Shown here in pieces: positions 1,234 through 6,406 of a stretch of DNA of 17,317 nucleotides (the stretch's first letter is position 1; the number at the start of each line of letters is the position of its first letter). Source of the DNA: a virus (Duplodnaviria; Heunggongvirae; Uroviricota; Caudoviricetes); the IMG/VR virus record IMGVR_UViG_3300029745_000045; one strand, 5' to 3'. The position numbers and the translations under genes were made by a program. The notes beneath the pieces were generated by a model. That model did not search any database. It was not told the DNA's origin and saw nothing but the letters and a program-made list of their open reading frames with translations.

Positions 1234-1929
1234 ATGAAAGAGATGATTTCTGTCGATCATGAAATATCCATGAGTAGTCTGGATTTTCTGAATAACATTA
1301 TTAATCCAGCCCGGGCAGAAGCCGGAGAAGTCCCTCATGAACCGCGTAAGTTTCTTGCAAAAATTGAGGATGAGCTAGAGCTTGATGGAACCGGAAAAAA
1401 ATTCCGGTTAAACAATAACCAGACAAGAACGGCATACTATGATCTGGATTTTGACCAGATGATGCTCGTTGGCATGAGGGAGTCAAAGGCCGTTCGTCGT
1501 TCTGTGCTGGCAAGACTCAAAGCGATGCATGGTATTCAGATCCCCCGGACTTTACCTGAGGCGTTGCGATTTGCGGCAAAACTGGCTGAACAGAAAGCAG
1601 TGCTGGAAAATCAACTGGCAATAGCAGCGCCGAAGGCTGAATTTGTTGATAACTATGTTGAAGCATCTGGTCTGATGGGATTCCGGGAAGTTGCTAAGTT
1701 ACTCGGTATCAAAGAAACCGATTTCCGGCTGTTTTTGTTGGAGAACGGAATAATGTATCGCCTCGCTGGAAAAATGACGCCTTACTCGCATCACCTGGAT
1801 GCGGGGCGGTTTAGCGTGAAAACGGGCGAGGCGGGCAATGGTCATGCTTTTACGCAGGTTAAATTCACCCCAAAAGGTGTTGAGTGGATTGCTGGTCTGC
1901 TTGCTGCATGGAGAGCTACCGCAGCATGA
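1234..1929 (+). CDS. Phage antirepressor / regulatory protein (Rha-like N-terminal region, KilA-C/ANT-like C-terminal domain)
   Basis: 231-aa ORF with an AAGGA RBS. The C-terminal half (…AEFVDNYVEASGLMGFREVAKLLGIKETDFRLFLLENGIMYRL…FTQVKFTPKGVEWIAGLL) matches the recalled ANT/KilA-C pattern. Assignment from memory of domain signatures. Confidence 0.65.
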   Translation: MKEMISVDHEISMSSLDFLNNIINPARAEAGEVPHEPRKFLAKIEDELELDGTGKKFRLNNNQTRTAYYDLDFDQMMLVGMRESKAVRRSVLARLKAMHGIQIPRTLPEALRFAAKLAEQKAVLENQLAIAAPKAEFVDNYVEASGLMGFREVAKLLGIKETDFRLFLLENGIMYRLAGKMTPYSHHLDAGRFSVKTGEAGNGHAFTQVKFTPKGVEWIAGLLAAWRATAA

Positions 1930-2021
1930 AGATGATAAAAATGGACTGGAAATTTTTGCTGGTCTGGCTGATTCCGTTTTTATGGGTGGTTGCCCAGTTA
2001 ATTACTGCTATCAAGGGGTAA
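1926..2021 (+). CDS. Small single-pass membrane protein, 31 aa (MKMIKMDWKFLLVWLIPFLWVVAQLITAIKG)
   Basis: ATG overlaps the antirepressor TGA (gcATGAag). One hydrophobic helix flanked by Lys residues. Below the ORF-track size cutoff; found by manual translation. Confidence 0.4.
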   Translation: MKMIKMDWKFLLVWLIPFLWVVAQLITAIKG

Positions 2022-2023
2022 AG

Positions 2024-2155
2024 ATGTCAGACAAACTCATAACGCCGGCAAAGGTCCTGTGTGTGATTGTCGGTATTTCATTTTCACTAATGCTGGTTGC
2101 TCTTTTTCTGTCCCTCGCCTGGGTGATGTTGTCTTCGTCGGGGCTGCTGGGGTGA
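2024..2155 (+). CDS. Small single-pass membrane protein, 43 aa (MSDKLITPAKVLCVIVGISFSLMLVALFLSLAWVMLSSSGLLG)
   Basis: ATG at 2024 preceded by AAGGGG (2013-2018); starts 2 nt after the previous small ORF stop; strongly hydrophobic core. C-terminal part of the 1838..2155 track ORF. Confidence 0.45.
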   Translation: MSDKLITPAKVLCVIVGISFSLMLVALFLSLAWVMLSSSGLLG

Positions 2156-3529: not shown

Positions 3530-3895
3530 ATGGCTGAGCTTCGTACACTCCAGAGCAGAATCAAAACACTGAATACCCGACGGGTGAATATTCTGAAGGG
3601 TGAACAGCGTCGTGTCAGTGGCAGTGCACGTGTTTCCCTCAAGCGTCATATCTGGCTCAGGGACGCCGGGCAGTGCTGTATCTGTGGTCGTGTGGTTGAC
3701 CTCTGTGACAGTGAACTTGATCACCGAATTGCACTTCAGTTCGGTGGTGGTAATGAGGAGACGAATCTCTGGACGCTCTGTACCGAATGCCATCGACAAA
3801 AGTCTGCTCGTGAAGCGGCGGGTGGTATGCCGGACCCGACGCTGCCGGAGGTGTCCGGAGGTAGTGGCAGAGCGGACGACATCATCGGACTGTAA
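3530..3895 (+). CDS. HNH endonuclease (phage packaging-associated)
   Basis: Cys-rich HNH motif (CCICG…ELDHRIALQFGG…NLWTLCTECHRQK) and position just upstream of the terminase genes, as in HK97-like cos phages. Confidence 0.85.
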   Translation: MAELRTLQSRIKTLNTRRVNILKGEQRRVSGSARVSLKRHIWLRDAGQCCICGRVVDLCDSELDHRIALQFGGGNEETNLWTLCTECHRQKSAREAAGGMPDPTLPEVSGGSGRADDIIGL

Positions 3896-3986
3896 CCCGA
3901 CCCGGGGGGGGATCATCCGGCGTAAAAAACGATCGCTTTGGACACCGCGCCCCCTCTCACGCAGAGAAAAAATTCCCGTTTCAGGG

Positions 3987-4114
3987 CAGTTAACATGTTA
4001 ACTGGCTGCCCGGGCATTTTTGCGGTTTTTATCTTTATTATTCAGTTTGTTGTGCGGAAAAAATGTTAACTGGCTTTTTCAGCAAATGTTAACCAGGCAG
4101 CAGTTAACATTTGC
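3987..4114. repeat. Cluster of GTTAAC-centred palindromes and direct repeats; candidate cos / terminase recognition region
   Basis: Perfect 18-bp palindrome cagttaacatgttaactg (3987-4004); direct repeat ATGTTAACTGGCT at 3996 and 4063; 12-bp inverted arms gcaaatgttaac / gttaacatttgc (4082-4114). A-tract-rich DNA between them. Confidence 0.5.
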
Positions 4115-4184
4115 GGCATGAGACGCCGGGAAAAATGGGCTGAACCATACCCGGCTGAGTGCGTTCTGGACCCGGGAGGAGGCT

Positions 4185-4748
4185 GTGCTGACAACGCAAA
4201 AACGAAAATTTGCGCTGGCGCTCATGTCCGGGAAAAACAAAACAGCGTCAGCCATTGCCGCCGGTTATTCGGCGAAGACCGCCAGGGTTAAAGGCTCGCA
4301 GCTGGCAAAAGATCCGGAGGTGCTTGCGTTTATAGCCCGTAAACAATGCGAGACGGTGGAGGTGGATGAGGTTCCTGTTTACCGGCAGAAAAAATCAGAG
4401 CAGGAGGATAAACCCCGTCGCCGTGAGGCGGCTGCAATACCACAGCCGGACGAAAACAATCCGGAGATGCCACCGTCCGCGGTGATGTCTCCTGGTATTG
4501 AATATATGGAGGATGGTCTTCCCGATCCGGTGAAAGCCATGGGGCGGATCCTGGTGGAAAACCTCTGCATTGATCCGAAACTGGCACTGGATGCGGCCTG
4601 GCGTCTGGCGCAGTTCACGCACCATAAAAAAGGGGATACCGGGAAAAAATCGGCAAAAGGTGATGCCGCGAAAAAAGCGGCTAACCGTTTTGCGGTGCCA
4701 CCGCCACCCAGACTGGTGGTGAATAACGATAATGAGGGCAACGGATGA
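4185..4748 (+). CDS. terS: Terminase small subunit
   Basis: GTG start with GGGAGGAGG RBS. N-terminal HTH-like motif (KTASAIAAGYSAKTARVKGSQLAKDPEVLAFI) typical of phage small terminase subunits. Stop overlaps the large-subunit start (ATGA). Confidence 0.8.
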   Translation: MLTTQKRKFALALMSGKNKTASAIAAGYSAKTARVKGSQLAKDPEVLAFIARKQCETVEVDEVPVYRQKKSEQEDKPRRREAAAIPQPDENNPEMPPSAVMSPGIEYMEDGLPDPVKAMGRILVENLCIDPKLALDAAWRLAQFTHHKKGDTGKKSAKGDAAKKAANRFAVPPPPRLVVNNDNEGNG

Positions 4749-6406
4749 TACCTGTATGGAGCACAGCCTGCCCGGACTGGGCAGAGCGCCTGAAAAAGGG
4801 GCTGTCGATTATTCCGGATCCGATTTATCCGGACGAGGCCGCACATGCCCTGGCGATTTTTAAACAACTGCGGATTGTGGATGCACCTGGTAGCCCTACG
4901 TTCGGGGAGTCCTGTGCACCGTGGGTGTTTGACCTGGTGGCGGCCCTGTTTGGCTCCTACGATGCGCAGACCGGTGTACGCCATATCAAGGAAGTTTTTA
5001 TCCTTATCCCCAAGAAAAACTCGAAGTCCACGCTGGCCGCGGGGATCATGATGACGGCGCTGTTACTGAACTGGCGGCAGGCGGCGGGTTACACGATTCT
5101 GGCCCCGACTGTGGAGGTGGCGGCCAACGCCTTCAACCCTGCCCGGGATATGGTACGACGTGACGATGATCTGGATGACCTCTGCCAGGTACAGACCCAT
5201 ATCCGGACCATCACCCACAGGGTGACAGACACCACCCTGAAGGTGGTGGCAGCCGATCCGAATACGGTGTCCGGTATCAAGTCCGTGGGTACGCTGATTG
5301 ATGAGTTGTGGCTGTTTGGCAAGCAGTGCAAGGCGGAGGACATGTTACGTGAAGCCATAGGCGGCCTTGCCTCCCGCCCGGAAGGGTTTGTGGTGTATAC
5401 GACCACCCAGTCGAATGAACCGCCCGCCGGGGTGTTCAGACAGAAACTGCAGTACGCCCGGGATGTGCGCGACGGCAAAATTCATGATCCGCACTTTCTG
5501 CCGGTGATATTTGAACACCCTCCTGAAATGGTGGAAAGCGGGGCTCACCTGCTGATGGAAAACCTCGCCATGGTCAATCCGAATCTCGGCTATTCAGTGG
5601 ATGAGGCCTTTCTGTACCGGGAGTACCGTAAAGCCCGGGAAGCCGGTGAAGAGACATTCCGGGGGTTCATGTCAAAACACGCCAATGTGGAAATTGGTCT
5701 TGCCCTGCGCTCTGACCGCTGGGCGGGGGCTGATTTCTGGGAAGAGCAGGGCCGTTGTATCAGCCTGGACGATATCCTGCGTCGTGCTGATGTGGTGACG
5801 GTGGGGATTGACGGCGGAGGGCTGGATGATCTGCTGGGGATGTATGTGATTGGGCGTGACCGGGAGACCCGCGAATGGCTGGGCTGGGGCCATGCCTGGG
5901 CGCATGAAACCGCGGTGGTCCGACGGAAGAGCGAGGCGTCCCGGTTTCAGGATCTTGTTGCCTGTGGAGATATGACCATTGTCCGGCGTGTCGGGGATGA
6001 CACGGCGGAAGTGGCGGAATATGTGCGTCGCATTCATGAGGCTGAGTTACTGGAGCATATCGGTATTGACCCGTCAGGGGTGGGGCAGATTCTGGATTCA
6101 CTGGCGGAAGCCGGGATCCCCGACGGAATTGTGGTGGGGATAAGCCAGGGCTGGAAACTGGGCGGGGCCATTAAAACCACCGAGCGCAAACTGGCTGAAG
6201 GGGTGCTGGTGCATGGTGACCAGCCCCTGATGGCCTGGTGTGTCGGCAATGCCCGGGTGGAGCCTAAAGGTAACGCCATTCTTATCACCAAACAGGCCAG
6301 TGGACGGGGAAAAATTGACCCGCTGATGGCGCTGTTCAATGCGGTCTCCCTGATGTCCCTTAACCCGGAACCGAAAAAGAAAGAATATGCGGTTTTTTTC
6401 ATATAA
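4745..6406 (+). CDS. terL: Terminase large subunit
   Basis: 553-aa ORF coupled to terS, size and position typical of a large terminase subunit. Family-level call from memory, not a search. Confidence 0.85.
   Translation: MIPVWSTACPDWAERLKKGLSIIPDPIYPDEAAHALAIFKQLRIVDAPGSPTFGESCAPWVFDLVAALFGSYDAQTGVRHIKEVFILIPKKNSKSTLAAGIMMTALLLNWRQAAGYTILAPTVEVAANAFNPARDMVRRDDDLDDLCQVQTHIRTITHRVTDTTLKVVAADPNTVSGIKSVGTLIDELWLFGKQCKAEDMLREAIGGLASRPEGFVVYTTTQSNEPPAGVFRQKLQYARDVRDGKIHDPHFLPVIFEHPPEMVESGAHLLMENLAMVNPNLGYSVDEAFLYREYRKAREAGEETFRGFMSKHANVEIGLALRSDRWAGADFWEEQGRCISLDDILRRADVVTVGIDGGGLDDLLGMYVIGRDRETREWLGWGHAWAHETAVVRRKSEASRFQDLVACGDMTIVRRVGDDTAEVAEYVRRIHEAELLEHIGIDPSGVGQILDSLAEAGIPDGIVVGISQGWKLGGAIKTTERKLAEGVLVHGDQPLMAWCVGNARVEPKGNAILITKQASGRGKIDPLMALFNAVSLMSLNPEPKKKEYAVFFI

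Follow-up and report, generated by a model that had tools for sequence, protein, structure and literature searches.

A likely HK97/D3-type cohesive-end site with an array of GTTAAC units between the HNH endonuclease and small terminase genes of a Stx-type Escherichia coli prophage

Introduction

Where is the DNA of a lambdoid prophage cut for packaging when the interval between its HNH endonuclease gene and its small terminase gene (terS) holds a G8 homopolymer, A-tracts and a cluster of GTTAAC palindromes, and what might these elements do? The question is posed by positions 3896-4184 of the 17,317-nt stretch of tailed-phage DNA analysed here (IMG/VR record IMGVR_UViG_3300029745_000045; the window), which corresponds to the late region of a lambdoid prophage of E. 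coli, one of the Shiga toxin (Stx) phage kind. An earlier reading made from the letters of the DNA (the sequence-only reading) had proposed the G8 tract and the palindromes as a candidate cohesive-end site (cos) or packaging initiation site of the HK97-like type, and the recurring GTTAAC cores as binding sites for a dimeric protein such as the small terminase (TerS). Comparison with relatives makes it likely that 3904-4114 is the cos site of an HNH-using, cohesive-end packaging system of the HK97/D3 type; what this amounts to is a cos site of ordinary, known type that carries a lineage-specific expanded accessory array.

Position of the cohesive-end cut

Two relatives with determined ends are available, the Escherichia phage Lys8385Vzw and the Acinetobacter phage fEg-Aba01, and the ends of the window prophage are deduced by alignment to them. 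Lys8385Vzw, a Stx1 phage that was isolated as induced virions, shares 95% protein identity with the window in TerS and about 97% DNA identity in the gap; the last bases of its record are ...GGACACCGCCCCCCCT and the first are CTCACGCAG... (in longer form, CTCACGCAGAGAAAAAATTCCCG...). In the paper describing it, PhageTerm classified it as a cos phage with cohesive 3' ends and with CGCCCCCCCT as the cos sequence at the genome end (PMC7946995). The location of this cos is printed there as 'base pairs 50,977-50,953'; the record is 50,953 bp long, and 50,944-50,953 is presumably meant. The TerS of fEg-Aba01 is only distantly related to that of the window, and the gap DNA still aligns. Its record ends in ...GGGGGGATGTC...TTGGACACCGCCCCCCAT (terminal ...GGACACCGCCCCCCAT), starts with CGCACGCACAAAAAAAATTCCC... 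and annotates the final 10 nt as the 3' cohesive end. In the corresponding paper, PhageTerm assigned HK97-type 10-nt 3' ends with the sequence 5'-CGCCCCCCAT, and a heat/cool restriction assay confirmed that they are cohesive (PMC7354433).

Both determined 10-nt ends, CGCCCCCCCT and CGCCCCCCAT, align with CGCGCCCCCT at 3946-3955 of the window, and the record of Pseudomonas phage D3 likewise ends in ...GGACACCGCGCCCCCA. Because the ends of Lys8385Vzw and fEg-Aba01 align there, the cut is placed between the G8 tract and the palindrome: nicks would fall at 3955|3956 in the top strand and at 3945|3946 in the bottom strand, leaving a 10-nt 3' end 5'-CGCGCCCCCT, with G8 ending 34 bp to the left of the bottom-strand nick and the palindrome beginning 32 bp to the right of the top-strand nick. 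That cos is located here and is cut at 3946-3955 is very probable. The sequence-only reading was correct in its inventory of the gap (G8, 18-bp palindrome, 13-bp repeat, 12-bp arms and A-tracts all lie where it put them) and of the flanking genes (HNH, PF01844; terS, PF03592), and the determined ends of two relatives bear out its proposal that this gap holds an HK97-like cohesive-end site. Its identification of the packaging site with G8 and the GTTAAC palindromes holds in part: both have the look of recognition elements at the flanks, but neither contains the cut, which lies instead in a C-rich 10-mer that the reading had not listed, CGCGCCCCCT. The comparison with the cos regions of related phages that it had suggested accordingly placed the ends inside the interval, at 3946-3955.

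IMG/VR was scanned in two ways, with a pattern inside the nick-site box (cosN) and, separately, with a TerS protein profile, which is unbiased by the DNA pattern. The overhang varies among the protein-retrieved loci (CTCGCCCCCT, CGCCCCCTCC, CGCCGCCTCC); at overhang position 4 the window has G, the commonest variant (90 of 123 loci). A literature search with the literal overhang sequences returned unrelated papers only.

Organization of the gap

The elements between the HNH gene and terS are the following.

3904-3911, plus strand: G8 tract, the conserved left-hand G-box and left limit of the conserved cos block
3912-3939, plus strand: spacer of fixed length from the G-box to cosN, including a CGATCG palindrome at 3930-3935
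3940-3955, plus strand: cosN box GGACACCGCGCCCCCT, with the putative 10-nt 3' cohesive end CGCGCCCCCT at 3946-3955
3956-3977, plus strand: A-tract box (A-box) CTCACGCAGAGAAAAAATTCCC, +1 to +22, candidate primary TerS site
3987-4004, no strand: perfect 18-bp palindrome CAGTTAACATGTTAACTG, two inverted ATGTTAAC units
3989-3996, minus strand, and 3995-4002, plus strand: ATGTTAAC units U1 and U2, within the 18-bp palindrome
4005-4062, plus strand: AT-rich spacer with T-tracts about 9 bp apart (T5 at 4017-4021 and 4026-4030), GC content down to 0.33
4063-4070, plus strand: ATGTTAAC unit U3, preceded by A6 (4058-4063)
4082-4114, no strand: perfect 12-bp inverted repeat GCAAATGTTAAC-N9-GTTAACATTTGC, with U4 (4086-4093, plus strand) and U5 (4103-4110, minus strand)
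4115-4184, plus strand: lineage-specific linker, ending in the terS ribosome-binding site GGGAGGAGG (4174-4182)

GTTAAC occurs eight times in the window versus 2.06 expected, a number reached in none of 200 shuffles, and five of these copies lie within 3989-4108. The true repeat unit is an 8-mer, ATGTTAAC, which extends GTTAAC: it occurs five times, always within 3989-4110, versus 0.28 expected (0 of 200 shuffles reach five), and the three GTTAAC outside the gap cluster lack the extension. The gap also holds an exact 13-bp direct repeat, ATGTTAACTGGCT (3995-4007 and 4063-4075), and two pairs of perfect 12-bp inverted arms (4061-4072/4101-4112 and 4082-4093/4103-4114), and A6 tracts are found at 3924-3929, 3967-3972 and 4058-4063. 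Single-stranded DNA folding of the gap recovers the palindromes only (z = -2.3).

Mini-ORFs (short open reading frames) start at some of the units, namely one of 24 hydrophobic amino acids (ATG at 3995) and two shorter ones (4063 and 4086). They were rejected as coding: the satellite islands described below have a stop after four codons (ATGTTAACTGCCTGA), 1-nt indels occur here in some phages, and the frames are not conserved.

The left half of cos: G-box and spacer

In 113 of 119 pattern-retrieved loci, 28-29 bp separate GGACACC from the end of a preceding G-run of 5-13 bases, and a G-run is present in every protein-retrieved locus listed, those with differing overhangs included. The spacer between G-run and cosN (3912-3939) keeps its length (28-29 bp); its sequence is identical at 12-14 of 28 positions between the window and the satellite cassettes, and is partly conserved among the short-type phages defined below. 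The window has 44 nt between the G-rich box and the top-strand cut; the figure is 42 in HK97 and HK022 (in both, G9 followed by ATC), 40 in D3 and 45 in fEg-Aba01, and phiE125 also has a G-rich box, 40-45 nt to the left of its top-strand end. The rule that such a box lies at this distance left of the cut (about 40-45 nt), to which the window conforms, was derived in this analysis and is not a published one. Among near-identical phages the G-run varies from 5 to 13 bases with its right edge fixed, for which slippage or homopolymer sequencing error is a possible source.

Conservation begins abruptly at this tract. Among relatives, 106 of 116 columns vary in the 3' part of the HNH gene (3780-3895) versus 10 of 146 in cos and the 5' part of terS (3904-4330), a disparity that places a mosaic recombination boundary at the G-run, and the G-run of the PPompW prophages is adjoined by unrelated DNA; the tract is therefore the left border of a conserved block. 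The G8 tract seems to be part of cos, being a box that is conserved and keeps its spacing.

Several PPompW prophages carry ISEc20, an IS110-family insertion sequence, in or beside the cos G-run (in locus L002 at 1046-2504, equivalent to 3904-3911 of the window), with tRNA genes upstream in place of the lysis genes and HNH. These prophages probably cannot package.

The right half of cos: A-box and GTTAAC units

On the terS side of the cut, the A-box (3956-3977) is nearly invariant in the alignments of both architectures described below and in the protein-retrieved relatives, and it is recognisable in Acinetobacter and Burkholderia phages. Its A6 sits at +12 to +17; in HK97, the experimentally defined TerS site spans +15 to +29 and its A-tract is essential (PMC11331095). 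The A-box (+1 to +22) would be as good a candidate for the primary TerS site as the GTTAAC units. In D3 and locus L103, which encode a TerS of another family, G-box and GGACACCGCGCCCCC are retained, with neither A-box nor GTTAA motif present; it follows that the right half tracks TerS and the left half does not.

Two architectures occur among the loci, a short type in 48 (including Salmonella phage SP-016) and a long type in 58 (including the window). In the short type, GGAGGGTGTAAAC-ATG-TTA-ACA comes directly after the A-box and is the ribosome-binding site and codons 1-3 of terS; GTTAAC there encodes part of Met-Leu-Thr, of which Leu2 and Thr3 are invariant in TerS. The 18-bp palindrome of the window is homologous to this start-codon region. 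Long-type loci have exactly 190 bp more (4003-4192) between that relic and the present start, GTG CTG ACA, which is preceded by GGGAGGAGG; all 58 of them carry five GTTAAC. In the phage collection, the 190-bp segment is found at the HNH-terS position only, and its clearly duplicated part is limited to the ribosome-binding site and ATGTTAAC. Two origins considered for the segment were set aside: a degenerate copy of the terS 5' coding region produced by tandem duplication (local alignments against shuffles, p = 0.03 to 0.8) and a miniature inverted-repeat transposable element, for which convincing terminal inverted repeats were not seen.

Short-type phages bear on the idea of a dimeric binding protein in the sequence-only reading, as functional relatives manage with one or two GTTAAC overlapping the terS start codon; moreover, TerS proteins of the fold found here form ring oligomers, mostly nonamers, and the 'dimeric' part of the idea is not supported.

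The same alignments give substance to a sceptical explanation, namely that the GTTAAC cluster is non-functional debris of a duplication or insertion at the terS start codon and that only G-box, cosN and A-box matter: the first palindrome lines up with the short-type ribosome-binding site and start, its TTAAC represents the invariant Leu2-Thr3 codons, and short-type phages have just one or two copies. Such an origin without function is nevertheless quite improbable given how the insert varies. Across 46 unique long-type sequences, none of the 30 GTTAAC columns varies versus 46 of 164 other insert columns (Fisher p about 3e-4 for GTTAAC constancy, against columns 3975-4184), and the 18-bp palindrome has no variable column. 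Furthermore, U5 is inverted and belongs to a perfect inverted repeat of 12 bp, an arrangement that does not result from simple tandem duplication, and beyond the ATGTTAAC units the insert has no significant similarity to the terS 5' end (the p values of 0.03-0.8 given above). U3 is invariant in phages and satellites, and the bases that follow it vary (TGG, AGG, CGA, TAC); the spacer 4005-4062 and the linker 4115-4184 are likewise variable among long-type phages.

Non-coding GTTAA repeats between cosN and terS are also found outside the long type: three AAGTTAAA in fEg-Aba01, two in each of loci L046 and L065, and two GTTAAC in L205. In L205 the two copies are 13 bp apart and about 100 bp upstream of terS (1501), a layout that parallels that of the window. 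In both lineages with upstream copies, the window and L205 (start ATGCTTACA), the terS start lacks TTAAC.

Satellite islands with cos-only cassettes

Further evidence on the units comes from seven small integrative islands of about 11 kb each that carry a cos-only cassette. They are integrated beside yejO at a tRNA-Pro gene, beside phoQ or beside thiM, and encode a P4-type integrase, Icd-like proteins, a primase or RepA helicase, SSB, PerC, a major capsid protein and a head decoration protein; they have no HNH gene and no terL (large terminase gene), and no terS adjoins the cassette. Islands of this kind were noted at L064 (10700-10900), L211 (about 12100-12330) and L217-L222. The cassette extends from the G-run, which it keeps, to just past the fifth unit: similarity to the window stops at about 4112, and the linker 4115-4184 is absent from the satellites. 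Within it, the block 3940-3978 (cosN and A-box) is identical to the window at 37-38 of 39 positions, and the spacer 4005-4062 is about 67% identical at equal length. The five hexamers are 30/30 identical in all seven cassettes at spacings of 8/68/23-24/15 bp, amid about 67% identity in other columns, a pattern that also argues against the units being debris.

The islands bear equally on a regulatory explanation, in which the GTTAAC units would be operators for another protein (a phage or host regulator, or a satellite factor) that governs late-operon or terS expression or helper-satellite interference. A palindromic and inverted layout suits dimeric regulators, the site overlaps the terS start in short-type phages, and a Nu1-family gene beside one satellite cassette suggests that other proteins may read this DNA. 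Yet the satellites keep all five units with neither terS nor the late operon downstream, and the presence of the motif tracks the TerS family across Escherichia, Acinetobacter and Burkholderia phages. Nor does the gap hold an excess of promoter-like or terminator-like sites over shuffles, or an Rfam match at E up to 1. This explanation is unlikely, if a little less so than that of debris. As no terS stands behind the island cassette, a role limited to terS expression is unlikely, and since the units are constrained in the phages and kept in the satellites, a role in cis in packaging is likely and is the simplest reading of their retention in the islands. Overall, it is probable that the ATGTTAAC units are cis-acting packaging elements. 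TerS may be the protein that binds them, an assignment that we hold tentatively, at somewhat less than even odds.

The islands look like satellites for which Stx-type phages would serve as packaging helpers. In L222, the gene beside the cassette (1535-2077, minus strand) encodes the Nu1-family small-terminase-like protein (PF07471, E 1.4e-22), which is unrelated to the window TerS and may be a packaging-redirection factor. A broader proposal, that the ATGTTAAC array is a cosB-equivalent specificity module expanded in Stx-type phages, that Stx-type helpers spread the islands, and that the G-box is a general cosQ-like element of HNH-associated cos sites, that of HK97 included, is rather doubtful at present; the accessible HK97 literature does not address a role for a G-box.

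Packaging genes around cos

Across 94-99% identity, the window matches BP-4795, 2851, YYZ-2008, 1717 and many Stx1a, Stx2a and Stx2c phages. Its gene order is Rz, HNH, gap, terS, terL, protease-capsid fusion and portal, and the genes adjoining cos are the following.

3530-3895, plus strand: HNH endonuclease gene (Pfam HNH, PF01844, 30.3 bits versus a cut-off of 21.4)
4185-4748, plus strand: terS, small terminase with an SF6/SPP1-type N-terminal helix-turn-helix domain (Pfam Terminase_2, PF03592, 36.0 bits versus a cut-off of 26.1)
4745-6406, plus strand: terL, HK97-type large terminase (Pfam TerL_ATPase, PF03354, and TerL_nuclease, PF20441)

The HNH gene codes for the accessory nuclease of packaging systems of the HK97/D3 type. 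All of the protein-retrieved relatives (36 of 36) have an HNH gene upstream of terS, and the order HNH upstream of cos with terS and terL downstream is shared by the window with HK97, D3, SfV and phiE125. The window HNH protein is 34% identical (E 2e-14) to the one encoded upstream of the fEg-Aba01 cos; its similarity to HK97 gp74 is not significant, with none detectable beyond the HNH motif.

TerS belongs to the Terminase_2 (SPP1/SF6 G1P-like) small terminases. Its structure was predicted from the single sequence with AlphaFold2 (AF2) and is trustworthy for residues 1-56 only, where the local confidence score (pLDDT) is 83-90; the best fold match of this model in Foldseek is the DNA-binding domain of SF6 TerS (4zc3; TM score 0.85, root-mean-square deviation 1.6 Å over 56 columns). 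It shows no similarity to HK97 gp1 (BLASTP E 0.91) and is not a member of the gp1 family. By contrast, the sole sequence match of TerL in the Protein Data Bank is HK97 TerL (6z6d, E 1.1e-9, covering residues 84-534). The window TerS groups with those of SPP1 and SF6, which are pac phages, and so the module pairs a nuclease and cosN of the HK97 type with a recognition subunit of the SF6 type.

That TerS family is one of the points that favour yet another explanation, in which the region does not serve as cos here, the prophage being either defective or a headful (pac) packager, and the repeats have no packaging role. The HNH-terS gap is found in 1277 of 5426 complete E. coli genomes, many of which carry several copies (up to 7 per genome), and some relatives are clearly degraded, as in the PPompW prophages with ISEc20 in the G-run and no HNH upstream. 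However, the window has unbroken open reading frames for HNH, terS, terL, the protease-capsid fusion and portal, its TerL is of the HK97 type, and the relative that is about 97% identical in the gap yields virions with 3' cohesive ends at the aligned site. Disuse of the region is therefore highly improbable, and a functional cos remains the preferred explanation.

Further downstream, a single 645-aa open reading frame (6470-8407) joins Peptidase_S78 prohead protease and Phage_capsid domains, the fused protease-capsid kind described for Gifsy-2. A 407-aa frame that follows portal (9980-11203) has marginal and unrelated Pfam matches (TetR_C_35, DUF4244, CBM_5_12).

Comparison with known packaging sites

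HK97 shares with the window the order HNH, cos, terS and terL, the HK97-type TerL, a 10-nt 3' overhang (in the window by homology), a G-run 42-44 nt left of the top-strand cut followed by (G)ATC, and an A/T-tract element within +10 to +30 on the terS side. In HK97, the HNH protein gp74 stimulates cos cleavage. It differs from the window in its unrelated TerS (gp1, as opposed to Terminase_2), in its overhang (CGCCGCCAAA versus CGCGCCCCCT), and in having only 49 bp from cut to terS and no ATGTTAAC array. The left half of D3 is nearly identical to that of the window, with GGACACCGCGCCCCCA at the right genome end, the G-rich GGGGTGGGGCGGG 40 nt upstream and HNH upstream of that, whereas its right half is unrelated, as it has no A-box and no GTTAA and its TerS is of another family (weak Terminase_4/6/7 matches only). 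In Lys8385Vzw and fEg-Aba01, both TerS and cos DNA are homologous to those of the window, with three non-coding AAGTTAAA repeats in fEg-Aba01 versus five ATGTTAAC units in the window; the accessible parts of the papers on these two phages do not mention the G-box, A-box or repeats (PMC7946995; PMC7354433).

Similar to the cosQ-cosN-cosB arrangement of lambda, the window has an element left of the nicks, a nick site, and repeats in mixed orientation with an AT-rich segment before the small-terminase gene. This likeness is one of function and architecture only. Lambda has a 12-nt 5' overhang, a winged-helix TerS (Nu1), a required site for integration host factor (IHF) and no HNH. The site in the window is not a lambda-type cos: its TerS is not Nu1, the gap has no match to the IHF consensus WATCAANNNNTTR at up to one mismatch, and the relatives have 3' ends. 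With the pac regions of SPP1 and SF6 the window shares the fold of the TerS (G1P) DNA-binding domain, and SPP1 TerS makes multiple contacts flanking the cut; these phages differ in that they package by the headful mechanism and lack both defined cohesive ends and an HNH partner.

Proposed working of the site

During the late lytic cycle, TerL and TerS, aided by the HNH protein, would nick concatemeric DNA 10 nt apart, with a chemistry presumed from HK97, after which packaging would proceed rightwards into terS. The left half (G8 box, 28-bp spacer and the GGACAC beside the overhang) is common to phages with unrelated TerS and is therefore most likely read by TerL and HNH; possibly, it resembles lambda cosQ in serving the terminating cut. 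The right half, i.e., the A-box and five ATGTTAAC units arranged as two inverted pairs and a single one, would most likely act as a cosB-like landing region for the helix-turn-helix ring of TerS, and the AT-rich spacer with its T-tracts (4005-4062) may help the DNA to bend around that ring.

As to how the array arose, its first inverted pair stands where short-type relatives have the terS start region (ATG-TTA-AC, Met-Leu-Thr). In the Stx-phage lineage, 190 bp would have been added behind this pair, bringing three further units, a new ribosome-binding site and a new start codon.

Several points weigh against this account. The ends of the window prophage are known by homology alone, and the prophage could be defective. 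In the loci retrieved by the cosN pattern, the conservation of those 17 bases is circular, and the protein-based set shows that the overhang itself varies. The role given to the G-box is suggested by its conservation alone. TerS proteins of the SF6/SPP1 type mostly bind DNA weakly or non-specifically in vitro, and unit spacings of 8, 68, 23 and 15 bp fit no simple helical register. Short-type relatives carry one or two GTTAAC only, overlapping the terS start; as these suffice there, and SP-016 was obtained as a phage, this terminase type can do without three of the five units. Finally, with no IHF site the parallel to lambda cosB is incomplete.

Implications

For this phage group, the 10-nt end has been published before (PMC7946995), and the findings leave the understanding of cos packaging unchanged. 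No description of the G-box, A-box or ATGTTAAC array was found in the accessible literature, which does not cover key papers, so that these elements cannot be claimed as undescribed. The position of cos gives the physical ends of a prophage family present in about a quarter of complete E. coli genomes, many Stx1, Stx2a and Stx2c phages among them. Knowing these ends helps to predict which DNA is packaged and transduced, to recognise defective prophages, such as those with ISEc20 in the G-run, and to spot satellites that carry the same cos. In addition, the pairing of the left half with TerL and HNH, and of the right half with TerS, yields a map, open to testing, that assigns the parts of an HK97-type cos to the proteins that read them.

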